A DNA stretch of 64,000 nucleotides from Candidatus Uhrbacteria bacterium. GTDB lineage: Bacteria; Patescibacteriota; Patescibacteriia; UBA9934; UBA10169. A model generated the notes under the pieces. That model was not told where the DNA came from and did no database searches. It saw only the letters and a list, made by a program, of their open reading frames with translations. Positions 21,259-52,908 of the stretch are shown in pieces. Each line of letters begins with the position of its first letter. Position 1 is the first letter of the stretch. The DNA lies in assembly GCA_016187485.1 (NCBI GenBank), contig JACPJO010000005.1, positions 7,499 through 71,498 of the forward strand. The letters are read 5' to 3'. The position numbers and the translations under genes were made by a program.

Positions 21259-21648
21259 ATGCGACGATTGCGTTCGCCCGATGCCTACGCCACGGTGTGG
21301 GCTATCTTGGAACGGCGCGGGTTCTGCGTGCCGAAGCAACCGGCGCCCAAGAGCCGCGTCTTCGGGGACGTTGGGCTTGATGGCTACGACTTCATGCTCA
21401 TTGTGAGCGAGGTCGAAAGCACGCTTGGCATCCACGTGGACACGGATTGGCTTCTTGACCGTCCGCCCCGCGTGGAGGTTGCCGCGTACCTCAAGCGGCT
21501 GCACTTGGAGAACGTGGCCATCAACGGCTACGATGCTTCCAACCCGAAGGCTCTGCGGAATCTTGTGATGGGGCATATGACGCTCGCAAGCTTCGTGGCA
21601 ACCATCCGGGACGCCGTGGAGCGACCCGCCGTGATTCACATTAAGTGA
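21259..21648 (+). CDS. Acyl-carrier-protein-like orphan lacking the pantetheinylated Ser
   Basis: SRVFGDVGLDGYDFMLIVSEVESTLGIHV parallels ACP DLGLDSLD..E....E..FGI; own promoter-like sequence and terminator. Confidence 0.55.
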   Translation: MRRLRSPDAYATVWAILERRGFCVPKQPAPKSRVFGDVGLDGYDFMLIVSEVESTLGIHVDTDWLLDRPPRVEVAAYLKRLHLENVAINGYDASNPKALRNLVMGHMTLASFVATIRDAVERPAVIHIK

Positions 21649-21656
21649 TCTTCTTC

Positions 21657-21690
21657 GCTCCGCGCTCCCTCGGAGCGTTTCTCTTTTTTA
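21657..21690 (+). terminator. Intrinsic terminator
   Basis: CGCTCCG/CGGAGCG stem followed by TTTCTCTTTTTT. Confidence 0.7.
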
Positions 21691-34535: not shown

Positions 34536-34613
34536 AAAAGTCGAAAGCGACCCCGTGGGGTCGCTAGGTCCTCCTTCGCCTTGATGGGCTACGGAGGATG
34601 GAGAGAAGGAACG
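34536..34613 (-). terminator. Conserved 3' module copy A
   Basis: CGTTCCTTCTCTC...CTAGC-GACCCC-AC-GGGGTC-GCTTTCGACTTTT on minus strand; 32 nt identical to 46746-46777. Confidence 0.85.
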
Positions 34614-34614
34614 T

Positions 34615-36174
34615 TCAGTCGTTGGGATCCGTGAGCTTGCGCACCCGCATAGCGTGGGTGTCGAACGTGCAGGGCGCGTCCGCGAGCGGGTAGAAGCGCC
34701 AGCAGTCGCGCGCGACGGGCGGCGTATCGCGCGGGGGGAAGCCCGGCACGAGCACGTCGGTCCGCGCGGCGAGGAGCTGGCGGTCGATCTGGTCCTGGGG
34801 CCACTCGAGTTCGTAGCGGAGCGTCTGTCCGCTCTGCACGACCGTGGCCGTGTAGAGCTCTCGGTGCTTCGTGCGGCTGAAGCCATCGTAGGTGGGCTTC
34901 ACGAACTGCCAGCCGCACTCGATGACGCGCGACTGCAGGGCCTCGTAGAACCATGCCTGGCGCACGATGCTCTCGCGCGGCACGGTCTTGGTGCCCTCGT
35001 CTTCGCGCCCCTTCTGTGGCCTCACGGACTTGACGTAGCCGGTGCCCCCTTCCTCCATCTCGGCGGCCAGGATGTGGCGGTACAGGTAGGGGGCGTTCTC
35101 CGGCGTGAGGCGCCGGAGGAGGTTGCCGAGCAGCTGCTCGCACTCCCGTCCCCACGTGTTCCTGTGCATGTCGAGCAGCAGGTGGGTGGCGATCGTGTAG
35201 GACGAGTCGCACGCGGGCAGCGCGCGCAGGATGTCGTAGCGCACGCCGATCGGGAGGGCGCGGAGGCTCTCCGTGTCGACGTGCTTCGCCGTCATGTTCG
35301 GCTGCGACAGCGCACTCGTCGTCGCCTCGATCATGGGCAGGGCCCAGTCGAAGCCGACCCGGGCGAGCGCCATGAGCTCCTTGATGCCCTTGTTGTAGAA
35401 CGCGTTGTGGGGCGGAGGTGGCGGGTTGCCGGCCTGGAGGTGCGCCGCGAATGCCGTAGCGAGCCACCACCGGTGAACGAACGCCAGCGGAGCCCGCCGT
35501 GCGCACTCCGTGACCATCTTGCGGAAGTCGTTCACGTCCTCGAAGCAGGGCCAGAGGGAGGCGGCCCATCCATCGGAGGAGTCGAGGAACTTCCCGGCGA
35601 ACGAGCCATCCGTGTTCGTCGTGATGAGCTCCCACACGATCTCGCGCATCATCTGCTTGCCGTCCCGGTGGGTCAGGATCACGTCCGTGAGCCACGTCGG
35701 GTCGTGGGAGCGGCGGAGGATGTGCGTCCGCGCCGTCTCCACGCGCTCCTCGATCGGGAGCCAGGCGAAGAGGATCGGCAGCTCCTGCACGATCTCCGTC
35801 ATCTGGGTCCACGACGTGTCCGTCGTGAGAACCCGTGCGAGTGCCGCACGGTCTGCCTCGGGCAGGATCGTTCCGAGGTGCTCCAGACTCTGCAGGACCC
35901 AGCAGAGCCCGTGGGCCTGCGTGATGTCCTCGGGGAGGTTGCACTCGCGGTCGCGCTCGATCGCGGTCAGGATGTCCGCCAGCTTGAGCGTCCCCGTCTC
36001 GTCGCGAACCGTGAGGTCGGGGTGCAGCATGAAGCGCGCCTGGCGCGTCTTCTGTGCCTTCTTCTCCTTGATGGCCTTGTCGCGGGCCTGCTGGTACTCG
36101 AGGAAGCTGAACCCGCGATTTTCGAGATCCTTCCGGATTTCCTGCATCTCCTCACTGTTGAGCTCGATGTCCAT
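34615..36174 (-). CDS. GC-rich orphan protein (519 aa)
   Basis: Strong G/C-ending codon bias in this frame, AAAGG RBS, own promoter and terminator; no recognisable domain. Confidence 0.8.
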   Translation of the reverse strand: MDIELNSEEMQEIRKDLENRGFSFLEYQQARDKAIKEKKAQKTRQARFMLHPDLTVRDETGTLKLADILTAIERDRECNLPEDITQAHGLCWVLQSLEHLGTILPEADRAALARVLTTDTSWTQMTEIVQELPILFAWLPIEERVETARTHILRRSHDPTWLTDVILTHRDGKQMMREIVWELITTNTDGSFAGKFLDSSDGWAASLWPCFEDVNDFRKMVTECARRAPLAFVHRWWLATAFAAHLQAGNPPPPPHNAFYNKGIKELMALARVGFDWALPMIEATTSALSQPNMTAKHVDTESLRALPIGVRYDILRALPACDSSYTIATHLLLDMHRNTWGRECEQLLGNLLRRLTPENAPYLYRHILAAEMEEGGTGYVKSVRPQKGREDEGTKTVPRESIVRQAWFYEALQSRVIECGWQFVKPTYDGFSRTKHRELYTATVVQSGQTLRYELEWPQDQIDRQLLAARTDVLVPGFPPRDTPPVARDCWRFYPLADAPCTFDTHAMRVRKLTDPND

Positions 36175-36196
36175 GGTCGGTCTGCCTTTCTGGTGC

Positions 36197-36252
36197 GAAA
36201 TGCACCTTTCAAGGCAGGGCCACCATCGGCCCTACCTTGAAAGGTGCATTTC
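36197..36252 (-). promoter_or_regulatory. 25-bp hairpin in 5' leader of orphan gene
   Basis: GAAATGCACCTTTCAAGG(C)AGGGCC-6 nt-GGCCCT(A)CCTTGAAAGGTGCATTTC. Confidence 0.75.
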
Positions 36253-36369
36253 ACGCCTTCAGGGGGCCGACGTCCTACAATTTTACGGTGGACGTTGGAA
36301 GTAGGATCTAACTACATAACATGGGAATGTCCTGTTTTCTCCTCGGCTTGCTTGCCGAATGGAGGTGAC

Positions 36370-36398
36370 AGAATACCAAAAAACGGTCGAAATGTCAA
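36370..36398 (-). promoter_or_regulatory. Sigma70 promoter for orphan 34615-36174
   Basis: TTGACA-17 nt-TATTCT with extended -10 TG. Confidence 0.7.
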
Positions 36399-36443
36399 TA
36401 CATAATGGAAGACTCCGTCCGTGATACAATTTCTGCAATATCT

Positions 36444-37247
36444 ATGCCAAAGCGCACGCGCACGATTATCTCTTGGAATGTCAACGGTATTCGCTCGGTC
36501 TTGCGGCAGGGTCTTTCGGATTTTATAAAAAAACACCATCCCGACATTCTCTGCCTACAAGAAACGAAGGCTGAGCAAGGCCAAGCCGTCGTAGATTTGC
36601 CGGACTATGAGGAGTATTGGAATAGTGCAAAGAAGAGAAAGGGATATTCTGGCACCGCGATTTTCTCCAAGCAAAAACCTCTCTCGGTTTCTTTTGATTT
36701 ACCTGTCAAAGGCGGGGTGCTTACGGACGAGTATGGGGACGCTAATGGGGAAGGGCGCGTGATCACGGCCGATTACGGAGACTTTTTTCTGGTCAACGTG
36801 TATACACCAAATGCAAAGCCGGACTTGGGACGTCTGGCGTACCGACATAAAGTTTGGGACCCGGCGTTTCTGAAATATCTTAAAGCCCTTGAAAAGAAAA
36901 AACCCGTGATTGCCACAGGCGATTTCAATGTGGCGCACGAGGAGATAGACATTGCGCGACCGAAAGAGAATGTGAAAAACGCCGGCTTTACTCCCGAAGA
37001 GCGCAAAGGGTTTGAGCGCATAGTGGAGGCGGGGTTCGTGGACACGTTCCGTCTGCTCCACCCAAACGAAAAAGATCGTTACACGTGGTGGGCGCGCTGG
37101 AGCAATGCCCGTGCGCGCAATGTCGGTTGGCGCATTGATTATGTTATCGTCTCGCCGGCGCTCAAGAGAAAAATTAAACGCGCGTTTATTCTTGACCATG
37201 TTATGGGCTCCGATCATTGCCCTGTGGGGGTTGATTTGCTAGGGTAG
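36444..37247 (+). CDS. xth: Exodeoxyribonuclease III
   Basis: SWNVNGIR, LQETK, GYSG, GDFNVAH, GWRIDY, GSDHCP. Confidence 0.96.
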   Translation: MPKRTRTIISWNVNGIRSVLRQGLSDFIKKHHPDILCLQETKAEQGQAVVDLPDYEEYWNSAKKRKGYSGTAIFSKQKPLSVSFDLPVKGGVLTDEYGDANGEGRVITADYGDFFLVNVYTPNAKPDLGRLAYRHKVWDPAFLKYLKALEKKKPVIATGDFNVAHEEIDIARPKENVKNAGFTPEERKGFERIVEAGFVDTFRLLHPNEKDRYTWWARWSNARARNVGWRIDYVIVSPALKRKIKRAFILDHVMGSDHCPVGVDLLG

Positions 37248-37253
37248 CTCCGT

Positions 37254-38756
37254 ATGAACATCACTATCGTCAAAGGCAGACTGGAGGAACAAAAGGCCGA
37301 CCTTCTTGTGGTAAATGAATTCTCTGGTGTGGAGAAAACCGGCGGAGCGACGGGATCTGTTAATAAAGCGCTTGGGGGGCTTTTGGAGAAACTCATGAAG
37401 GAGGAGCAGTTTAATGGCGGACAGAGGGAGACGCTTCTAGTGCGGACGGGGGGTGTTATTCCCGGCTCACGGGTTCTTCTTGTTGGACTCGGTGAACGAA
37501 AAGATTTTTCTCTAGAAACCGTACGCGAGGTGAGCGCTGCTGCGTACAACACAGCGAAGAAACTTGGGGCGCGCCGCGTCGTCTCGATTCTTCACGGCGC
37601 AGGAGCAGGGAAGTTGTCGGCGCTTCTGTGTGCAAAGGCACAGACCGAAGGCGTACGGCTTGCCGAATATGAATTTGTTAAACGGAAAAAGGCACCAGAG
37701 AAAAAGACGCCGAAAGTAGAGTCCTGGACTATCGTCTCTTCGGATGCTGCTCATGTGCGTGCGGGGGCAAGGGGGGTGGGCGAAGGCGAACTTTCTGCCG
37801 AGGGAACGATCTTTGCGCGCGACCTTGTGAATGAGCCAGCGGGACAGATGACGCCAAGACATTTGGCGCTCGCGGCGCAAAACATCGCAAAGGTGAGCAA
37901 AGGAGCCGTTCGTATAAAAGTTTTTGAAGCAGGGCAGATCGAAAAGATGGGTATGGGGGGGGTTGCCGGCGTTGGTCAAGGATCTGTTCATCCGCCATAT
38001 TTTGTCCACCTTATCTACAAGCCACGCGGGGCAAAGAAAACGGTTGCGGTGGTGGGGAAGGGCATCACGTTTGACTCCGGTGGTCTTTCTCTCAAACCGG
38101 CCGACTACATGATGACGATGAAGTGCGACATGGCCGGTGCCGCGGCGGTGCTTGGGTTGTTCTCGGTGCTTACGCGGGTTGCTCCAAAGGTTACAGTGCA
38201 CGGGATTTTTGGCGCCTGTGAAAATATGCCGTCGGGAAACGCCATTCGACCGGGCGATGTACTCAAAGCGCTCAATGGAAAGACGATGGAGGTGTTGAAT
38301 ACGGATGCCGAGGGACGTTTGACGCTGGCCGACAGTCTTTCGTATGCGTCCAAATTGAAGCCCGACGCTCTTGTGGACCTTGCCACACTTACGGGTGCGT
38401 GCATGGCGGCACTTGGTGAAGAGATAACAGGGGTGATGGGGAACGACCACAAGTTGACAGGAGCAATATTGCAAGCGGCTGCCGCGGCTGGCGAAAAGAT
38501 GTGGGAGCTGCCACTTGAGAAGAGATACAAAGATCTCATCAAATCTGAAATTGCCGACGTAAAAAATATCGGGGGGAAATACGGCGGCGCCATTACCGCG
38601 GGTCTCTTCCTGCAAGAATTTGTTGACGCGGAAATTCCCTGGGTTCATCTAGACATTGCCGGTCCCGCGTTTGCCGAGCGGCCGGTAAATGCGTACACCC
38701 GTTATGGCGGCACCGGAGCCGGTGTAACAACACTCATCGAGTTCTTGAAAAAGTAG
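37254..38756 (+). CDS. pepA: Leucyl aminopeptidase (M17)
   Basis: GKGITFDSGG, MKCDMAG, NTDAEGRL, DLATLTGA, HLDIAG. Confidence 0.96.
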   Translation: MNITIVKGRLEEQKADLLVVNEFSGVEKTGGATGSVNKALGGLLEKLMKEEQFNGGQRETLLVRTGGVIPGSRVLLVGLGERKDFSLETVREVSAAAYNTAKKLGARRVVSILHGAGAGKLSALLCAKAQTEGVRLAEYEFVKRKKAPEKKTPKVESWTIVSSDAAHVRAGARGVGEGELSAEGTIFARDLVNEPAGQMTPRHLALAAQNIAKVSKGAVRIKVFEAGQIEKMGMGGVAGVGQGSVHPPYFVHLIYKPRGAKKTVAVVGKGITFDSGGLSLKPADYMMTMKCDMAGAAAVLGLFSVLTRVAPKVTVHGIFGACENMPSGNAIRPGDVLKALNGKTMEVLNTDAEGRLTLADSLSYASKLKPDALVDLATLTGACMAALGEEITGVMGNDHKLTGAILQAAAAAGEKMWELPLEKRYKDLIKSEIADVKNIGGKYGGAITAGLFLQEFVDAEIPWVHLDIAGPAFAERPVNAYTRYGGTGAGVTTLIEFLKK

Positions 38757-38803
38757 GCTCGGGCGTGTAACCGCTACGTCCACCTTATCTTCCTCGCTCG
38801 AGT

Positions 38804-39364
38804 CTATTTTCCAAGCGTTTGCTCACCCGGCTTCCAATCTACGGGACAGCGTTCGCCGGTTTGCAGCGCCGCAAGAACACGCAGGACCTCATCTACGGAT
38901 CGTCCGACGTCGAGATCGTTGTATGCGGCGTAGCGCAAGACTCCTTCGGGATCAATGATGAAGGTGCCACGAAGCGTGATGCCCTTACTGTGCACAAGAA
39001 CACCGTACGCGTCGCTCATCTCTTGCGTCATGTCCGAGAGCATGGGGAATTTGAGAGGCCCGATTTCTTTGAGCCACTGCTTGTGCGAATGCACGCTGTC
39101 GGTTGAGCAGCTGTACACGATTGTATTGAGCTTTTGAAAATCCGCAAAGCGCGTGGAGAACTGTGTGATCTCCGTGGGACAAATGAATGTGAAATCGAGC
39201 GGGTAGAAGAAAAGGACAACCCATTCACCACGGTGGCTTTTCAGGGGATAGGTGCGGAAGGTAACTCCGTCCGTATCTACTCCCTCTAGGGTAAAGTCTG
39301 GCGCCTGCTCTCCCACTTGCGCGTGTGCGCAGCAAAGGAAATCTTCGGTATTTTGGTCTATCAT
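38804..39364 (-). CDS. ahpC: 2-Cys peroxiredoxin
   Basis: FYPLDFTFICPTE, GRSVDE.LR, CPVDW.PG. Confidence 0.93.
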   Translation of the reverse strand: MIDQNTEDFLCCAHAQVGEQAPDFTLEGVDTDGVTFRTYPLKSHRGEWVVLFFYPLDFTFICPTEITQFSTRFADFQKLNTIVYSCSTDSVHSHKQWLKEIGPLKFPMLSDMTQEMSDAYGVLVHSKGITLRGTFIIDPEGVLRYAAYNDLDVGRSVDEVLRVLAALQTGERCPVDWKPGEQTLGK

Positions 39365-39410
39365 AGGTAAACAGCATAGCAAAAAATAAGGCAATTTGGT
39401 AGAGTGACGC

Positions 39411-40433
39411 ATGACTATGCAGGGACGCGGAAGAATTTTTCTTGGGATTTTAGCGGTTTTTGCCGTCGTGCTTTTTATTGCAGAATATCGAGCGCGAACC
39501 GCAGGGCCTCGTATCGAGCCGTTTGCGCAAAGCGAAGGGTGGGGTATCCCGCGTGAGGAAGTGTATGACTCCGGCCTCTCGTCCTCGTCCATTCCGGCCA
39601 TTGACGCCCCCGCGTTTATTTCCCCAAGCGAAGCGGATATATTTTTGTATGATGAAGGCGAGGGTGTCTCCCTATCCCTGGGCGGCGAGACACAATTCTA
39701 TCCTTTCCAGATTCTTGTGTGGCACATGGTTGTGAACGACATGATTGCCGGTGTGCCCATTGTTGTTACCTACGATCCTCTTGTGGGAAGCGCGATGGTC
39801 TACGATCGCCGTGTGGAGGGCCGCACCCTCTTGTTTTCGGTGAGTGGAAAATTATGGAACTCAAACGTTCTCTTGCTTGATCGCGAGACGGGAAGCCTTT
39901 GGCCGCAAACAACAGGACGGGCGGTGAATGGGGAATTCCTTGATCGCGATCTTGCACCGATAGGATCGGAAATCGTCACCTGGAAAAAGTGGAAGGCACA
40001 ACGCACAACAGGACGCGTGCTCTCTAAAAACACCGGGGCTGTGCGTGACTATACGCGTAATCCTTATCTTGGCTACGAAGAAAATCGTTTAGTGTATTTC
40101 CCGCTTTCCCGTCGTGACATTCGTCTCCACCCAAAGGAACTCGTCTTTGGGTATACAGGACCGGAAGGCGAGACGAAAGCGTACCCGCGCGAGTATTTGG
40201 TGGAAGAGGGAAGTATCACCGACACGGTTCTCGGGCGCAAAGTTGTCATGACGTTTAACGAGAACACAGGTGTGCTTCGTGCGAGGGGAGAAGATGTGGC
40301 GGGCGTGGCAAGCGATGTATTTCTCCGTCCTATGTATTGGTTCGCATGGGCGGCGATCCATCCAGACACAGAGCTCTATGACCCGCTCGGAGAAAAACAG
40401 AAAGTGGAAAGTGAACAGCAAGAAGGAGAGTAG
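39411..40433 (+). CDS. DUF3179-like exported protein
   Basis: IPAID.P.F, YP..IL.WH..VND, SG.L..SN....DR.T.SLW.Q, WFAW. Confidence 0.85.
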   Translation: MTMQGRGRIFLGILAVFAVVLFIAEYRARTAGPRIEPFAQSEGWGIPREEVYDSGLSSSSIPAIDAPAFISPSEADIFLYDEGEGVSLSLGGETQFYPFQILVWHMVVNDMIAGVPIVVTYDPLVGSAMVYDRRVEGRTLLFSVSGKLWNSNVLLLDRETGSLWPQTTGRAVNGEFLDRDLAPIGSEIVTWKKWKAQRTTGRVLSKNTGAVRDYTRNPYLGYEENRLVYFPLSRRDIRLHPKELVFGYTGPEGETKAYPREYLVEEGSITDTVLGRKVVMTFNENTGVLRARGEDVAGVASDVFLRPMYWFAWAAIHPDTELYDPLGEKQKVESEQQEGE

Positions 40434-40435
40434 CT

Positions 40436-41116
40436 ATGGGAACGCTCTTTGTCGTGGCGACGCCCATTGGGAACCTCCAGGATATTTCTGCGCGGGCGCG
40501 TGAGATTCTCGCGTCGGCCGATCTTGTGCTGTGCGAGGATACGCGCGTGACGGCAAAACTTCTTTCTGTGTACGACATCCACGTACGCACTGCCGCCCTG
40601 CATCAACATTCCACAGATGCGAAACACCAAGCGTATATCCGGCTGCTTGCCGAAGGAAAGACGCTCGCGCTTGTAAGCGACGCGGGAACACCAGCGATTT
40701 CCGACCCCGGCGGGAGGTTTGTAGAGGATGTTCTTCGCGCTCTTGGGGATGAAGCAAAGATCATTCCTATCCCCGGGCCGTCCGCAGTTACGGCAGTGTT
40801 AAGTGTCTCTGGATTTCCTGCAGACACCTTCACGTTTCTCGGTTTTCCCCCGCAGAAAAAGGGCCGAGAAGCTTTTTTCCGTTCGCTTGTTCACATCGAA
40901 CATACGGTAGTGTTTTACGAATCTATCCACCGTATTGTGAAGGCGCTCGCGTCTCTTTCGGCTCTTCTGCCGGAGCGCCAGATGGTGCTCTGCCGGGAGC
41001 TTACAAAACTGCACGAACATATCTATCGCGGGACGCCGGCGCAAGTGACAGACGCTCTTTTGGGTGATAGCATCAAAGGTGAGTGTGTGATCGTGCTTGC
41101 GCCCGCACGGTTTTAA
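40436..41116 (+). CDS. rsmI: 16S rRNA (C1402-2'-O)-methyltransferase
   Basis: VATPIGNL.DIS, CEDTR, SDAGTP.ISDPG, RELTK.HE. Confidence 0.96.
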   Translation: MGTLFVVATPIGNLQDISARAREILASADLVLCEDTRVTAKLLSVYDIHVRTAALHQHSTDAKHQAYIRLLAEGKTLALVSDAGTPAISDPGGRFVEDVLRALGDEAKIIPIPGPSAVTAVLSVSGFPADTFTFLGFPPQKKGREAFFRSLVHIEHTVVFYESIHRIVKALASLSALLPERQMVLCRELTKLHEHIYRGTPAQVTDALLGDSIKGECVIVLAPARF

Positions 41117-41117
41117 T

Positions 41118-42575
41118 ATGTCTCGTTTTTATCTCACGACAACTCTCCCCTACGTAAATGCCGATCCGCACATCGGATTCGCTCTTGAGATTGTGCAGGC
41201 GGATGTTGTGGCGCGCCTCCATCGCCAAAAGGGAGAGGAAGTTATTTTCAACACGGGCACAGACGAACATGGCCAGAAGATTTATCAAAAGGCTCTCGAA
41301 CAGGGGAAAGAGCCGCAGGCGTACTGTAATGAATATGCCGCAAAATTTGATCGGCTGAAGACGGCGCTTAACCTCTCCTACACGCATTTTATTCGTACGA
41401 CATCGCCAGACCATGTCGCGGCGGCACAGGAATTTTGGAGGCGTTGCGATGCGCACGGCGACATCTACAAAAAAAATTATCAGACAAAGTATTGCGTCGG
41501 GTGCGAATTGGAGAAACAAGACTCGGAGTTGACCGATGGCCGTTGCCCCGTTCATCCGAACCTTGCGCTTGAGCTGCGCGAGGAGGAAAATTATTTTTTC
41601 CGTTTTTCCAACTACCAGAAACCCCTCCTGGATCTCTATACGGCACATCCGGATTTTGTCGTGCCGGACTATCGGCTGACCGAAATCAAAAATTTCGTCG
41701 AGGCTGGGTTGCAGGATTTCAGCATCTCGCGACTAAAAGAGAAAATGCCGTGGGGAGTAAGCGTGCCGGGTGATGAAGCGCACGTGATGTATGTCTGGTT
41801 TGATGCGCTCATTAACTATATCTCTACGCTTGGCTGGCCCAAGGAGGGAAGTGATTTTGAAACCTTCTGGCCTGGGGTGCAGGTGGCGGGGAAGGACAAC
41901 CTTCGCCAACAGTCGGCAATGTGGCAGGCTATGTTGCTGTCGGCGGGGTTACCTCCATCCGAACAAATTTTCATACATGGTTTTATTACCGCGGATGGGG
42001 CGAAGATGAGTAAGTCGCTTGGAAATGTGGTGGATCCGTTTGCGATGGTCGAGCGTTATGGCACAGACGCCCTGCGGTACTATCTTCTGCGCGAGATTGT
42101 TTATGGGGCAGACGGGGATTTTTCGCTTTCACGGTTTGACGAACGATACAACGGTGATCTTGCGGATGAGCTTGGCAACTTGCTCCATCGTGTGCTCACC
42201 ATGACAGAGAAGTACGCAGAGGGGATTGCGCCTGCTCCCTCCGCTCAGGGAAAACAAGTTTCCGTGGACCGCGCCTATTTTGAGGAGCTCACTGACCAGT
42301 ATCGTTTCAGCGAAGCTCTCTCTCTGGTGTGGGATGTGGTGCGTATCGCCAATCAAGATATTGAGAACGCGAAACCGTGGGCGATGGCGAAAGAGGGGCG
42401 TTTCGATGAGGTGAAAGACGAGCTTGCGCACCTTTTGCATCTTCTCCGACAAATTGCTGACATGTTGGCTTCCTATTTGCCGGAGACGGCCGAACGAATG
42501 AAGCGCGCACTTGCCGAGCCCGGAAAACCAATAATGAAAGGGGAGCCGCTCTTCCCTAAAATGGAAACTCTATGA
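41118..42575 (+). CDS. metG: Methionine--tRNA ligase (short form)
   Basis: YVNADPHIG, GTDEHGQK, YVWFDAL.NY, KMSKS. Confidence 0.96.
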   Translation: MSRFYLTTTLPYVNADPHIGFALEIVQADVVARLHRQKGEEVIFNTGTDEHGQKIYQKALEQGKEPQAYCNEYAAKFDRLKTALNLSYTHFIRTTSPDHVAAAQEFWRRCDAHGDIYKKNYQTKYCVGCELEKQDSELTDGRCPVHPNLALELREEENYFFRFSNYQKPLLDLYTAHPDFVVPDYRLTEIKNFVEAGLQDFSISRLKEKMPWGVSVPGDEAHVMYVWFDALINYISTLGWPKEGSDFETFWPGVQVAGKDNLRQQSAMWQAMLLSAGLPPSEQIFIHGFITADGAKMSKSLGNVVDPFAMVERYGTDALRYYLLREIVYGADGDFSLSRFDERYNGDLADELGNLLHRVLTMTEKYAEGIAPAPSAQGKQVSVDRAYFEELTDQYRFSEALSLVWDVVRIANQDIENAKPWAMAKEGRFDEVKDELAHLLHLLRQIADMLASYLPETAERMKRALAEPGKPIMKGEPLFPKMETL

Positions 42576-43060
42576 CCTTTTCTCTCATGGACCTTATTCT
42601 TCTTGTCGTGCTCGGTCTCTTCACACTTGCCGGGCTCTACTTTGGGCTCTTCCATACGCTTGGAAGTCTCGTGGGCGCCGTCTTCTCCATCTTTGCTACC
42701 GGCTATGCCATGCCCTACGTGAGCAGTTGGCTTTCTGCGTGGATTCCGCTCTCGCCCCCGTTTACGGTTGTGCTGTTTGTCGTGCTTTTCCTTATCATCA
42801 GCCGATTGGTGGGATTTGTTTTCTGGATTCTCGATGAGACGCTTGGCATTGTGACGCGTCTCCCGTTTCTCTCTTCGGTTAATCATCTTTTGGGCGGCGT
42901 GTTTGGTTTTGTGGAAGGTGTTATTGCGCTTGGCGTGCTCATCTATGTGATCAACACGTACATCCCTTCGGGAGCGTTCCTCTCGGCCATAGCGGCTTCG
43001 CCAATTGCCGGATGGATTGTCGCCCTCACCGGCTGGCTGACCCCGTTGTTACCGTTTTAA
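42572..43060 (+). CDS. CvpA family membrane protein
   Basis: D..L......GL..G....LGSL.G, N.LLGG.FG..EG. Confidence 0.85.
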   Translation: MTFSLMDLILLVVLGLFTLAGLYFGLFHTLGSLVGAVFSIFATGYAMPYVSSWLSAWIPLSPPFTVVLFVVLFLIISRLVGFVFWILDETLGIVTRLPFLSSVNHLLGGVFGFVEGVIALGVLIYVINTYIPSGAFLSAIAASPIAGWIVALTGWLTPLLPF

Positions 43061-43099
43061 CAACGAGGCAGTCTGCTGGCAGGACTCCGAGCATCATCT

Positions 43100-43984
43100 A
43101 TGACTCTTTTCGATTCCCACTGCCACGTCCATTTTCGTGCTTATAAGGAGGACAGGGATGCTGTTATTAAGCGTGCAACCGAAGAGGGCGTTTTCATGCT
43201 TACCGTGGGGACGCAGGCGGATACGTCGCGTGAAGCGGTGCGTGTGGCTAACGCGCATGAAGGTGTGTGGGCGACGGTGGGGCTTCACCCCAATCACACG
43301 ACGGCACAAGAGTTTGTAGACGAGAGTGAGGAGGACACCATAGCGAAAGTCAAAACGCGCACAGAAGTTTTTGACGCGGAAATGTATCGTCCGCTTGCGC
43401 AAGATCCAAAGTGCGTGGCGATTGGGGAGTGCGGACTCGACTTTTATCGCATCCCCGAACATCTTGATCGAACGGACGTCATACGAACGCAAGAAGAGAT
43501 GCTGCGGCGGCAGTTTGATTTGGCGACCGAACTTGGGAAGCCCGTGGTCATCCATTGCCGCGACGCGCACAAAGAACAGGCAGATATAATTGAAGAGTAT
43601 GTCAAAAAGGGAAAGCTGGGTGCGCGGGGTGTGATCCATTGTTTTACGGGTACGAAGGAAGATGCCCTTCGGTATCTTGCGCTTGGGTTTTATATTTCGT
43701 TTTCGGGGGTCGTGACGTTTCCGCCACGTAAAGAGGGGTCTGACCCCTCCGGGGGTCAGACCCCTCTTGCGCCGCTTGCGCTTGTGGCGCGTGATATTCC
43801 GGAGAATCGAATTCTCATCGAAACTGACGCCCCCTATTTAGCGCCTATTCCCATGCGGGGTAAGCGCAATGAGCCGGCGTATGTGCGTCATACAGCAGAA
43901 TTTTTGGCAAAGTTGCGTGGAGTGACTTTGGAGGAGTTTGCAAAGGTGACAACAGAGAACACGAGGAGAGTATTTGGCATTTGA
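43100..43984 (+). CDS. tatD: TatD family DNase
   Basis: DSHCH, GLHP, AIGECGLDF, HCRDA, HCF, ETDAPYL. Confidence 0.95.
   Translation: MTLFDSHCHVHFRAYKEDRDAVIKRATEEGVFMLTVGTQADTSREAVRVANAHEGVWATVGLHPNHTTAQEFVDESEEDTIAKVKTRTEVFDAEMYRPLAQDPKCVAIGECGLDFYRIPEHLDRTDVIRTQEEMLRRQFDLATELGKPVVIHCRDAHKEQADIIEEYVKKGKLGARGVIHCFTGTKEDALRYLALGFYISFSGVVTFPPRKEGSDPSGGQTPLAPLALVARDIPENRILIETDAPYLAPIPMRGKRNEPAYVRHTAEFLAKLRGVTLEEFAKVTTENTRRVFGI
43731..43768. repeat. In-frame palindromic element in tatD
   Basis: Perfect 17-bp arms AAGAGGGGTCTGACCCC-TCCG-GGGGTCAGACCCCTCTT. Confidence 0.85.
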
Positions 43985-44030
43985 AATTCGAAAGCCAGGC
44001 ACGAGGCCTGGCTAGGAAGAAAAGAACGAA
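43984..44030 (-). terminator. Conserved 3' module copy C
   Basis: TTCGTTCTTTTCTTC-CTAGC-CAGGC-CTCGT-GCCTG-GCTTTCGAATTT. Confidence 0.8.
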
Positions 44031-45104
44031 CTAGAGCTTGTGGCCGAGGCGGCGCATGGTGGCGTGGATGTCGCTCACCACGAGCACGGCGTCGGCACGC
44101 GTGAGGTGCCACACGCGCTCGCCGTCCCAGTGGCGAAGTGGTCGCCGGATTGCCGAATCCTCGTTGAGTAGATCGGTGTAGAGTGCGCGCAGTCGGGGCT
44201 CGGACTTCTCTCCCTCGAATCGCTTGATGCGCAGTTTGAGGCGCCGAGCGAGCTCCGCCGACATCTCCTCGCGACTCTTCCGTGCCGCGACGAGCCGGAG
44301 GCTCGTATACACGCCGTCGTCTCGTCCCTGCTCCCACGCTGCGATGAGCTCCGGTTCCGGACTCACGCGGATGTAGTTGGCGGGGAGCGTGCGCGGCGGC
44401 GGTTGGGCGGCCTCGGTGCGCGGTGTGGCCTCTGCCGAAGGCGGTTCTGCCGCCTGCCGCTGCGCCTGCTCAATGTCCGCCGCCGTGACACCGCTTCCCG
44501 CCTGCACGACTTGTGCGCGCAGGCGCTCTTCGCGAATGCGCGCCCGGGAGCTTTCCGCCGCCGCCGTCTCTTCCGCCGTCTTCACGAGCTCCATCTTCTG
44601 CGTTCTAGCGTAGGCGGTGAAGCCATCGCGCACAGAGGAGTTCCAGAAGGCGCTGTCGTCGGGCCAGTCGGGCGCATCGTTGGGGGACGTGTAGCCGAGT
44701 TGTCGCGCCATCGCGATCACCTCGTCGTACTGATCGTCTCCCTCGGGCGCGATCTGCATCGGCTCGTCGGGGTTGCGGGAGGAACTGTGTCGGTACTTGT
44801 CGAGCGCCTTGAGTCCGTAGTAGATCGCCTCGCGCAGACTCTCGTCCACGCCGACCTTTTCGAGCAAGGTCTTCCATTGCTCGAGCGCGCCAGGCTTCTC
44901 CACGCTCTTCGTGAAGGTCCCCCGAGGGAGGAACCTCACGGCGCCCTCGACGAACGGGGCGAATTCGTAGCTGCCGTCCTTCTCTCGGTCTACGTAGTTG
45001 TTCCCCCCCTCCATCTGACGTGCGTCGGCGAAGGGGAGGGCGACGAGGTCCAGGTACTCCTGAGGATTCAGTTCAGAAAGGCTGATAGCCATGGGGTACT
45101 CCAC
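44031..45104 (-). CDS. GC-rich orphan protein (start 45104 or 45092)
   Basis: GC-biased codons, central Ala/Glu/Pro/Gln-rich linker, own promoter and terminator. Confidence 0.8.
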   Translation of the reverse strand: MEYPMAISLSELNPQEYLDLVALPFADARQMEGGNNYVDREKDGSYEFAPFVEGAVRFLPRGTFTKSVEKPGALEQWKTLLEKVGVDESLREAIYYGLKALDKYRHSSSRNPDEPMQIAPEGDDQYDEVIAMARQLGYTSPNDAPDWPDDSAFWNSSVRDGFTAYARTQKMELVKTAEETAAAESSRARIREERLRAQVVQAGSGVTAADIEQAQRQAAEPPSAEATPRTEAAQPPPRTLPANYIRVSPEPELIAAWEQGRDDGVYTSLRLVAARKSREEMSAELARRLKLRIKRFEGEKSEPRLRALYTDLLNEDSAIRRPLRHWDGERVWHLTRADAVLVVSDIHATMRRLGHKL

Positions 45105-45137
45105 TTCGTATAGGTTAGGAAAAGGCCGAAACGCCTC

Positions 45138-45199
45138 AACTTAGCAAAAAAACCTGTCGCTGTCAATGCGTTGACAGCAGCAGACTTTTCTGCTAGGTT
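45138..45199. promoter_or_regulatory. Back-to-back quasi-palindromic bidirectional promoter
   Basis: Minus TTGACA-17-TAAGTT and plus TTGACA-17-TAGGTT, -35 boxes 4 nt apart (TGTCAA-TGCG-TTGACA). Confidence 0.75.
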
Positions 45200-45328
45200 A
45201 AGCCCTTAGTTTGCGGCGATCCTGCCGCGAGCTTGGGCCGTCCAAAGACGGACGGCAAGTTCCTTGCAAGATGTTGGGCAATCCCGCCCTGTGTACGGCG
45301 CCGTGTGGCGCAGAAAGTGAGAGAGGCC

Positions 45329-46723
45329 ATGCCTCGTCCCCGTAAGGCTCTGCCTGCAGAGCTCCGGCCCGCCATTCCGGGCAAACCGGTCAATCTTCTT
45401 CCCGACAAGTACCGCCGGAACCCCCTCCAGTTCGCCCGCGAGGAGATCGACATCGCGCGCAACAAGGGGGAAGTGCCCGACAACGATGCCGCTTTCCAGA
45501 CCCAGATCATCGAGGAGGACGAACGGCGGTGGCGGTCGCGCGAGCTGCCCGCCATCGCGGGGTACGTGAACCGGATGTACGCGCGCGGAACGTTCGTGGA
45601 CCCCGACGACTTCATGATCGTCTGGGGGCTCTGGAACCAGCACACCCACAGCTTCCGGCTCTCGCACGGCGACCCGGCGGTCACGAACGTTCTCACTGCC
45701 CACAACCAGGGCATGGCCCGCCCCATCACCGATGCGTTCCGCCCCATCCACGAGAAGGCGGTTCCGGTCCCGTTGGCGCTCCTCGCCTTCGAGAAGCGGG
45801 AGATGGGCGAGGACGTCCCGGCGGGCGTCGAGACGTCGGTGTACGTCTACGTCTGCATGCCGGCCAATCTCGAGGCATCGGTGAAAGACGGAAACTTCAC
45901 CGACGACGTGAGCGTGGGCGACACCCAGGTCTACACCACGGATCGCCAGGCAGTGCACCGCCGGAAGGAGGGCAATTTCCTCTTCCGGCCGAACAGCGTG
46001 TCCAAGCACCCCCGCAAGCGCTTCGTCGCCTTCCATCCCGTCACGAAGAAGCCGATCTACCTCGCTGTGATCCCGCAGCGCTTCCTGCGCCGTGGCAAAG
46101 AGGGCGAGGAAGGCTTCCAGCCCGGGCAGCCCTGCCCGGTGGACATGGACGAGTTCGCGGACGGCTACCAGGCCCAGGTCATGGACGAAGGTGCGGTGGC
46201 CACGGACGAGCCGGCGGAAGAGGAAGTCAAGAAGATCCTCGACCGCATCGCGCACGGAGGTGCCGGCGGGCGCAAGGCCAGCAGGCAGGGCGAGTTCGAC
46301 TTCGACGGCCGCGTCTGGAACGCGCTCTCGATCCTCGGCATCAAGGAGGGTGAAGCGCCGACGGCAGAGAGCATCGGGAAGGCGCGCAGGCGCTACAGTC
46401 CGAGGCTCTTCGATGCTCGAAGCGCCATGGGCCTCCACAGCGCCCTCGTCCTGCTCGGCATGCCCGAGAGCGATCGCACCGCGTACATGAAGGACAAGCA
46501 CTTCGAGATCTTCAAAGCCGCGGTCGGTGTGGCCGAGGGGATGCTGCCGAAGGCCGAGCCGGTGGAGGAGACGGAAGGCGACAAGCCCGCCGACTCGCCA
46601 CCCGCAACAAGCGAAGCGTCCAGCGCGACGACCTCGCCCGCCGACACGACGGACGACCCCGCCATGTCCCAGCCCGCCGCGACCCGCAAGGCCCCGCGCG
46701 TGGAACCCGGCACCGACGACTGA
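45329..46723 (+). CDS. GC-rich orphan protein with possible degenerate J-domain-like segment
   Basis: GAGAGG RBS before ATG 45329, extreme C/G third positions, low-complexity tail. Confidence 0.8.
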   Translation: MPRPRKALPAELRPAIPGKPVNLLPDKYRRNPLQFAREEIDIARNKGEVPDNDAAFQTQIIEEDERRWRSRELPAIAGYVNRMYARGTFVDPDDFMIVWGLWNQHTHSFRLSHGDPAVTNVLTAHNQGMARPITDAFRPIHEKAVPVPLALLAFEKREMGEDVPAGVETSVYVYVCMPANLEASVKDGNFTDDVSVGDTQVYTTDRQAVHRRKEGNFLFRPNSVSKHPRKRFVAFHPVTKKPIYLAVIPQRFLRRGKEGEEGFQPGQPCPVDMDEFADGYQAQVMDEGAVATDEPAEEEVKKILDRIAHGGAGGRKASRQGEFDFDGRVWNALSILGIKEGEAPTAESIGKARRRYSPRLFDARSAMGLHSALVLLGMPESDRTAYMKDKHFEIFKAAVGVAEGMLPKAEPVEETEGDKPADSPPATSEASSATTSPADTTDDPAMSQPAATRKAPRVEPGTDD

Positions 46724-46731
46724 CAGACCAA

Positions 46732-46777
46732 TTCGTTCTTTCTCTCTAGCGACCCCACGGGGTCGCTTTCGACTTTT
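46732..46777 (+). terminator. Conserved 3' module copy B
   Basis: TTCGTTCTTTCTCT-CTAGC-GACCCC-AC-GGGGTC-GCTTTCGACTTTT. Confidence 0.85.
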
Positions 46778-47000
46778 TTGTATCTTTCCTTTATTCCCCC
46801 TCGAAGGTATGTAAGGATAATCTAAGGCGTGTCGCAAGGACGGGGCCCCCATAACCCCGCAGCCCAGCTCAGCTGGGCGCAGCGAGTCATCGAGCGAGGA
46901 GGATGGGGTGGACGTAGCGGTTACACGCCGTCTTGTTACCTGTTCAAAACTTCCCTTGACCTTTAGTGTCTTTCCCTATATACTTTCGGCGCTTTTCGAT

Positions 47001-50573: not shown

Positions 50574-52908
<2,335 letters not shown>

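Follow-up and report, generated by a model that had tools for sequence, protein, structure and literature searches.

What connects three unrelated, strikingly GC-rich orphan genes that stand among core genes, and why does each of them end in the same short module? The question is raised by a 64,000-nt stretch of DNA (C4:7499-71498; hereafter, the window) from an 879-kb, 7-contig genome of Uhrbacteria-like Patescibacteria (label G000). The original prediction was of a dispersed gene-cassette system, with standardized expression units from a common donor or insertion pathway and a 3' module that served as a terminator and perhaps as a recombination signal. The analysis presented here favors another answer: the module would be a lineage terminator closing the members of a resident second gene class, possibly one translated by a host. 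For this explanation as a whole, a probability of roughly 0.65 is estimated.

About 60 stand-alone genes with high G+C content at third codon positions (GC3), mostly led by a Shine-Dalgarno (SD) sequence and mostly orphans, form a second gene class in this genome, and the module is restricted to that class. Genes were called with a custom script rather than a standard caller, and the class was taken as the GC3-high genes (one cut, used with the first gene calls, was GC3 ≥0.75 versus <0.65 for the core). With these calls, the module was found at 33 of 55 unit ends at or above 0.75 and at 2 of 345 below 0.65 (Fisher, 3e-31), and thus is more than an ordinary core-gene terminator, as had been proposed. 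Improved gene calls placed it behind 43/67 GC3-high unit ends versus 3/260 core ends. A strict pattern yielded 40 sites genome-wide and none in the reversed genome; 35 of these followed the 132 genes (out of 844) with GC3 >0.66, one followed a lower-GC3 gene, and four followed no called gene.

The module lies 7-101 nt past the stop codon and comprises a pyrimidine tract, a hairpin of ca. 18 nt and of free sequence, and TTTCGNNTT; the full layout is stop codon, pyrimidine tract, an optional hairpin resembling repetitive extragenic palindromes (REP-like), stem-loop, and TTTC(G)NNTT. Among 62 GC3-high genes having a hairpin and TTTC, there were 59 distinct hairpins, 49 of them 17-19 nt long, and the tail had T at position 8 in 55 copies and at position 9 in 50. 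All seven stem pairs showed double changes in 25 aligned copies that had been chosen for pairing. A covariance-model scan (at most 150 candidates scored per genome), which had been suggested as a check, returned 54 matches in the genome itself, none in G001 (a relative of the same family but another genus, and the sole other genome of the family in the comparison set), and one to five weak ones in 14 of 40 relatives. Module patterns were absent from viral and metagenome contigs, and the modules matched no Rfam family at the gathering score. Pairing of the pyrimidine tract with the SD region of its own gene (p 0.026, 23 genes, a single test) was not used as evidence.

The three open reading frames (ORFs) exist where they had been placed; only the start of the second was revised. 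Orphan 1 (34615-36174, minus strand; 519 aa, GC3 0.93) lies between DUF5671 and xth. Orphan 2 (44031-45092, minus strand; 353 aa, GC3 0.82) is convergent with tatD and has the SD GGAG; its start is more likely the ATG at 45092, because the GTG at 45104 is upstream of that GGAG. Orphan 3 (45329-46723, plus strand; 464 aa, GC3 0.88) is located immediately before atpB and belongs to a small, very divergent family. Nearly all neighbors have GC3 of 0.50-0.67, and the overall GC contents of the orphans (0.67, 0.66, and 0.67) are indeed far above those of four flanking genes (0.50-0.53). A single 12,238-nt contig from a public run (the runs with this contig may be the source sample itself) covers 34538-46775, including all three orphans and the intervening core genes, with no differences and flat depth; the segment is therefore not chimeric. 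Orphan status was also upheld, as none of the three had a Pfam, NCBIfam, or convincing PHROG match (orphan 2 had a weak PHROG match, E 0.001, without a passing stretch). Orphans 1 and 3 each matched only themselves among the ca. 8000 candidates scored per search, orphans 1 and 2 had no significant match in five relatives, and an Atlas search had no match; a single-sequence fold of orphan 3 was unusable (pLDDT 36).

Module 1, behind orphan 1, spans 34536-34616 (minus strand), with the pyrimidine tract at 34600-34616, a REP-like insert hairpin at 34570-34597, the terminator hairpin at 34547-34564, and the tail at 34536-34546. Sequence like its REP-like insert occurs at five places, four of them within modules. 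Module 2 (43983-44033, minus strand; hairpin 43994-44012) has a tail that abuts the tatD stop codon and was recovered at 37.5 bits (E 8e-8) by a covariance model trained without it. Module 3 (46730-46777, plus strand; hairpin 46749-46766) is identical to module 1 over its final 32 nt, exactly as first noticed, and the copy with a differing stem is still paired: all three hairpins fold, with z of -2.7 to -4.4. CTAGC, which had been taken as part of the motif, has only three genome-wide matches and does not belong to the general motif; an apparent CTAG excess was an artefact of counting stop codons. A further class gene of the window had been overlooked. This gene (21328-21688, plus strand; 106 aa, GC3 0.78) is a BLAST paralogue of an acyl-carrier-like class gene and has its own module at 21647-21688, which the covariance model also recovered (E 0.002).

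What does the module do? Very probably, it is a lineage-specific intrinsic (Rho-independent) terminator, as predicted from sequence. A GC-rich hairpin and then a U-rich tract, here interrupted (UUUCGNNUU), follow the gene end, and the likeness to intrinsic terminators rests on the hairpin shape being kept while its sequence is free. A strict terminator scan missed true module hairpins. Rho was not found in this genome (the control search matched in 9/14 genomes), and homologous genes at the tatD-atp slot of relatives end mostly in a plain hairpin and T run. RNA polymerase would stop in the UUUCGNNUU tail, insulating each unit, and module copies would spread by local duplication or gene conversion, with turnover inside a genus; jointly, these steps are proposed with high confidence. 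Stem sequence is common to unrelated genes (32 shared downstream pairs among 33 of 70 class genes, compared to 22 pairs, several of them tRNAs, among 28 of 234 core genes), and three unrelated class genes share a 130-190-nt promoter-leader at ca. 85% identity. Because identical stems and long leaders stand at unrelated genes, regulatory ends have been copied between loci. The shared structured leader of three non-paralogous class genes (G000 C3:19987, C3:98246, and C6:8672) is a possible regulatory RNA.

Are the genes themselves mobile? They are more likely long-standing, rapidly evolving residents than cassettes of recent insertion; a resident second class, as opposed to a cassette system, is considered quite probable. 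The notion of a common donor or insertion pathway, with the module as recombination signal, finds no support. Orphan 3 has an orthologue at the same position in another genus, and the 3' end there is different. In G001, the gene immediately before atpB is a full-length orthologue (24% identity over 424 aa, E 3e-14, GC3 0.96; AtpB is 73% identical) whose 3' end lacks the module; it was the sole match among the proteins of five sampled relatives. When 1.84 billion representatives were searched with a profile of these two sequences, three more full-length relatives and one fragment were reached; four matches that were long and repetitive were disregarded. Conservation at fixed loci, which the original prediction had named as evidence against itself, thus holds for orphan 3 and probably for orphan 2, whose probable counterpart in G001 (26% over 80 aa, E 0.15) is the divergent partner, start to start, in the same slot and orientation. 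The slot of orphan 1 in G001 holds an unrelated class gene (GC3 0.83, same strand), and therefore gene replacement at fixed slots occurs. Gene order over the 12-kb segment between the identical module copies is the same in a relative with the same flanking genes.

Across the order, the slot between tatD and the atp genes holds a similar pair of SD-led genes. At least 8 of 20 fetched tatD/atp loci had a divergent pair of mostly SD-led genes, at least 8 were empty, and the rest were split or partial; homologous pair members were 20-37% identical, and the pair was found in both orientations. Of the order's 162 genomes, 44 contained one particular pair family. Thirty loci of this family were fetched, and one was omitted for an internal stop; among the remaining 29, 26 copies stood beside tatD or atpB, 27 were SD-led, and most ended in a hairpin and T run; GC3 ranged from 0.35 to 0.96 across 23 loci. 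The family had no solved structural relative, and a J-domain-like helix noticed by eye was not significant. In one genus (L042, L044, L049, L051, and L052), the pair family occurs twice, face to face, at this slot. Many relatives have a small atpI-like ORF ahead of atpB; none is evident at 46778-46955 of the window.

An alternative reading makes the module an attC- or PeSL-like site of recombination through which cassettes are inserted or shuffled. The shared downstream sequences and the long shared leaders could be read in this way, as could the inversion of the tatD-atp pair between relatives and a tandem array with a repeated spacer in G013. But the module occurs at 3' ends only, without flanking direct copies; orphan 3 stays put while its 3' end differs; and the gene order of the 12-kb segment agrees with that of the relative. 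No joint skipping a gene between modules was present in four runs (as judged from contigs, which drop rare variants), and both tyrosine recombinases are encoded on a different contig, C3. Recombination is accordingly regarded as highly unlikely. The G013 array (L085:3625-8497) comprises six GC3-high genes, several with lipoprotein-like starts, and a repeated double-hairpin spacer of ca. 90 nt; it is the most cassette-like layout seen. The attC consensus has RYYYAAC...GTTRRRY ends and a bulged bottom-strand hairpin. Inspected by eye, 62 module copies had perfect short stems ending in TTTC instead, and the class genes are dispersed with their own promoters rather than arranged as promoterless tandem cassettes, unlike an integron array. 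Nor is the composite repeat on both sides of ORFans that marks PeSL elements present, the module being 3'-only and shared leaders being in the minority.

Hairpins at gene 3' ends also bring to mind diversity-generating retroelements (DGRs), which are common in the Candidate Phyla Radiation (CPR); the module would be their target hairpin, and A-to-N mutagenesis would have raised GC. That is extremely improbable. T is depleted at third positions as strongly as A (9.5% and 6.5% versus 24.6% and 17.2% for T3 and A3, respectively), which does not fit adenine-specific 3' variation, the bias runs over whole genes, and stems and loops are not conserved.

A more serious contender is that the class consists of morons acquired from GC-rich donors or phages, with SD, codons, and terminators as donor relics that have not yet eroded. 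Own promoters and terminators and a composition unlike that of the neighbors are as expected of morons; different genes occupy the orphan 1 slot; only 7 of 69 class genes have a relative in the sampled part of G001 (217 of 589 for the core); and the best matches listed for the class PilB are to non-CPR phyla, with no Patescibacteria named among the 80 matches listed. Yet the best PilB match is just 51% (among the best 600 stretches scored), one genus-specific terminator style runs over dozens of unrelated genes, and the module is absent from viral contigs. The signals persist at 20-37% protein identity in the pair families and at 50-66% in a thymidine kinase family (see below). As to recent insertion, the tatD/atp slot is empty in some of the fetched loci, as noted above; orphan 3 is kept at its site in G001, and orphan 1 is there replaced, not absent. 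The relic reading is thus already weakened for vertically kept families, and for the class as a whole it is judged unlikely.

If the genes are resident, what sets them apart? Among ATG starts, 37/57 class genes but only 28/542 core genes are SD-led; class codons end in C or G almost throughout, and the stop codon is TAG in 46/71. Promoters lie within 21 nt of the start in 13/25 core cases versus 2/22 in the class. This is not the signature of high expression in this cell, because the ribosomal-protein and elongation-factor operons, with 34 genes, show a GC3 of 0.58 and no SD (0/34). The tRNA set includes C-starting anticodons and does not discriminate. The class was present in all five sampled relatives (five families, 167-281 genes each), one of which has a core GC3 of 0.31. 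SD-led genes there numbered 7/11, 9/21, 8/14, 7/11, and 17/20 in the class versus 13/161, 4/126, 4/124, 10/121, and 3/148 in the rest, and each of the five lineages has its own terminator tail. When 60 of the 77 listed class proteins were scanned, 18 had Pfam matches at 1e-5: MopE-repeat proteins, kinases, GGDEF, PilB with MshEN, peptidases, tryptophan dioxygenase, TrpRS, a DnaA-like protein, and xanthine dehydrogenase subunits. The TrpRS, PepA, PilB, and DnaA-like genes are extra copies, separate core copies being present. The DnaA-like gene (G000 C3:209725-210771) is shortened and has a class terminator; the core dnaA is on C5.

Whose ribosome, then, reads these mRNAs? Tentatively, the class would keep its SD and codon bias because host-type ribosomes read its mRNAs; on the present analysis, this would be the most likely single reason, ahead of a second translation mode within the cell and of donor relics. 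For that to happen, DNA or RNA would have to pass into the host, or host ribosomes would have to be taken up. The cell's own ribosomes would translate the housekeeping genes, almost none of which has an SD and many of which have a promoter no more than 21 nt from the start. Evidence for the host step comes chiefly from other Patescibacteria rather than from this genome. Loss of the anti-SD has been reported in part of the Parcubacteria (PMC9297842), which therefore offers a natural experiment on SD use. In our sets, the anti-SD was found in 29/30 and 76/79 16S tails, and seven genomes of a further set were without it. The odd 16S tail of G313 (72-78% to its kin over short stretches) was set aside, and the tail of family f119 is still able to wobble-pair.

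In G185, a 15.8-kb contig contains a complete 16S gene, and pairing of the 16S tail to a textbook SD reaches -2.8 rather than -14.0 kcal/mol. All four AAGGAGG-ATG sites on this contig head ORFs (135-268 aa, GC3 0.46-0.57), and its housekeeping genes (GC3 0.36-0.42) have no SD. In three further anti-SD-less regions, 3/3, 3/3, and 2/3 SD sites head ORFs. One of the SD-led genes of these regions encodes a thymidine kinase, which occurs in 15 of 19 genomes of its anti-SD-less family, with 50-66% identity in other genera; the anti-SD was absent from all seven 16S tails seen in that family and from five of neighboring families. The SD was kept in 11 of 12 orthologue leaders (10 AGGAG and 1 AAGGAAG; one of the 11 was read by eye, and one was not located), although the leaders are largely dissimilar and GC3 is 0.27-0.57. 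Because the SD persists across divergent orthologues in this family, a recent-import relic does not explain the gene, and reading by host ribosomes is tentatively suggested. Two observations are weakly in favor: neither MoaC nor ALAD was found, although molybdopterin and heme are required by class enzymes, and the genome has a VirB4-like ATPase (a TIGR02746 match below the cut-off; PF03135 gave no VirB4 match).

Several points weigh against the proposed explanation. The 16S of this genome has an anti-SD, which means that the cell is itself able to translate the class. By the SD rule used, only orphan 2 of the three orphans is SD-led. All four anti-SD-less regions were picked for holding SD sites, and one of their SD-led genes encodes a homing endonuclease. 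Among 85 ORFs in blind 20-kb samples from four anti-SD-less genomes, there was no class gene, and two such genomes had no SD excess by the AGGAGG-ATG count ratio, a weak proxy that fails to separate anti-SD-less from intact genomes (p 0.58; in the genome of the window, only 6/66 sites fall at starts). The cell has Lgt and signal peptidase II (LspA), while lipoboxes are found mainly in class genes (4/71 versus 2/589 in the core), which suggests expression in-house. According to one report, type IV secretion systems of Patescibacteria mostly lack a relaxase, and import from the host is proposed rather than export (PMC12102498). Finally, the pair-family profiles failed to reach orphan 2 or 3, and position is thus the basis for equating these orphans with the pairs found outside the family. 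As a separate observation, a free-standing LAGLIDADG endonuclease with a helix-turn-helix and a textbook SD is encoded in the anti-SD-less G185 (L300:274-1080).

Several of these points would be expected if the cell's own ribosomes read the class in a second, leadered, SD-dependent mode, e.g. in a burst at host contact with imported host tRNAs. This would explain why most Patescibacteria keep the anti-SD; in lineages without it, the purine motif would act without pairing, through bS1 binding or leader folding. Besides the anti-SD in this genome and most relatives and the co-occurrence of Lgt and LspA with class lipoproteins, a thymidine kinase would be useful to the cell itself, and the same restriction-like 6-mers are under-used in class and core. 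Set against this are the exact AGGAGG kept in unrelated leaders where the 16S tail cannot pair well, as in G185, and the absence of the class codon bias from the ribosomal-protein genes. An in-house mode is therefore viewed as rather doubtful. Extending the host-reading proposal, the class may be a phage-early-like second genome, made up of dozens of scattered one-gene units whose ribosome-binding sites, codons, and terminators are of host type. These units would be delivered to the host or read by captured host ribosomes, and their products would reprogram the host; this picture is speculative. Delivery would be as DNA or mRNA, perhaps via the relaxase-less type IV secretion system, and the products would include the extra DnaA, PilB, and TrpRS, kinases, a diguanylate cyclase, salvage enzymes, and orphans.

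The upstream regions of the orphans add detail. Orphan 1 has a predicted sigma-70 promoter at 36370-36398 (minus strand; TTGACA-17-TATTCT, TG before the -10). Its leader of ca. 190 nt contains a 30-bp hairpin (36192-36257, minus strand; no Rfam family at the gathering score) that stops just before the purine stretch AGAAAGG at 36185-36191. The predicted promoters of orphans 2 (45138-45166, minus strand) and 3 (45171-45199, plus strand) stand back to back at 45138-45199. A promoter for each gene had been claimed; a consensus scan recovers that of orphan 1 only, because the -10 boxes of the other two match at 3/6 positions. The supposed common promoter style, TTGACA with a T tract, is enriched (10/61 class versus 2/214 core leaders) but not diagnostic. 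Other repeats were noted: an intergenic palindrome of ca. 28 nt, rich in CTTAG/CTAAG, ahead of both class and core genes (e.g. upstream of G000 C3:127186 and C4:149806); another intergenic family, a 40-nt inverted pair (93%) at 38762-38801 and 46890-46929 of the window, after pepA/ahpC and before atpB; and palindromic in-frame inserts in tatD (43733-43766) and near the atpD start (51556-51568).

The ways in which Patescibacteria make use of their hosts are poorly understood, and the majority of their genes lack annotation. SD, GC3, and terminator together form a simple sequence grammar that picks ca. 8% of the genes as host-interaction candidates. Where SDs are kept that the cell's own 16S cannot pair with, the question of whose ribosome reads class mRNAs becomes directly testable in existing co-cultures. 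If a second genome is indeed delivered or host-read, the class codon bias and terminator tail would predict the host; if the cell's own ribosome reads the class, the module is a genus-specific terminator family and an accessory-gene marker only. This analysis adds a terminator family specific to the class, a gene pair fixed at tatD-atp, and a test based on thymidine kinase. In a search that excluded subscription journals and supplements, no paper was found that treats a two-class gene grammar or host translation in Patescibacteria.

Among known systems, the module comes closest to intrinsic terminators whose U-tract is interrupted, T7Te and rrnB T1 being examples. They are alike in the GC-rich 6-8-bp stem, the short loop, the tail beginning UUUC, and the position right after the stop codon; the module differs in its constant upstream pyrimidine tract, its near-fixed 18-nt hairpin, and its limitation to one gene class and one genus. 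The PeSL cassettes of T4-type phages, as described in two reports, are repeated regulatory sequences beside ORFans, and they resemble the present system in having a sigma-70 promoter, a stem-loop, and an SD and in being copied between unrelated genes (PMC2839356, PMC4122927); here, promoter and terminator are apart, at opposite gene ends, and there are no flanking direct copies. Phage morons, as described in one of these reports, are single genes between conserved genes, with their own promoter and terminator, signals that are not thought to be a vehicle of mobility (PMC2839356). Class genes are likewise single units with such signals among conserved genes, but they are chromosomal, make up ca. 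8% of the genes, share one terminator family, and include several families that have been retained vertically at one fixed slot throughout an order. For the anti-SD-less Parcubacteria, the same loss served here as a natural experiment; the portion of the source at hand does not mention SD-led genes in those genomes (PMC9297842), and the genome of the window, by comparison, keeps its anti-SD.

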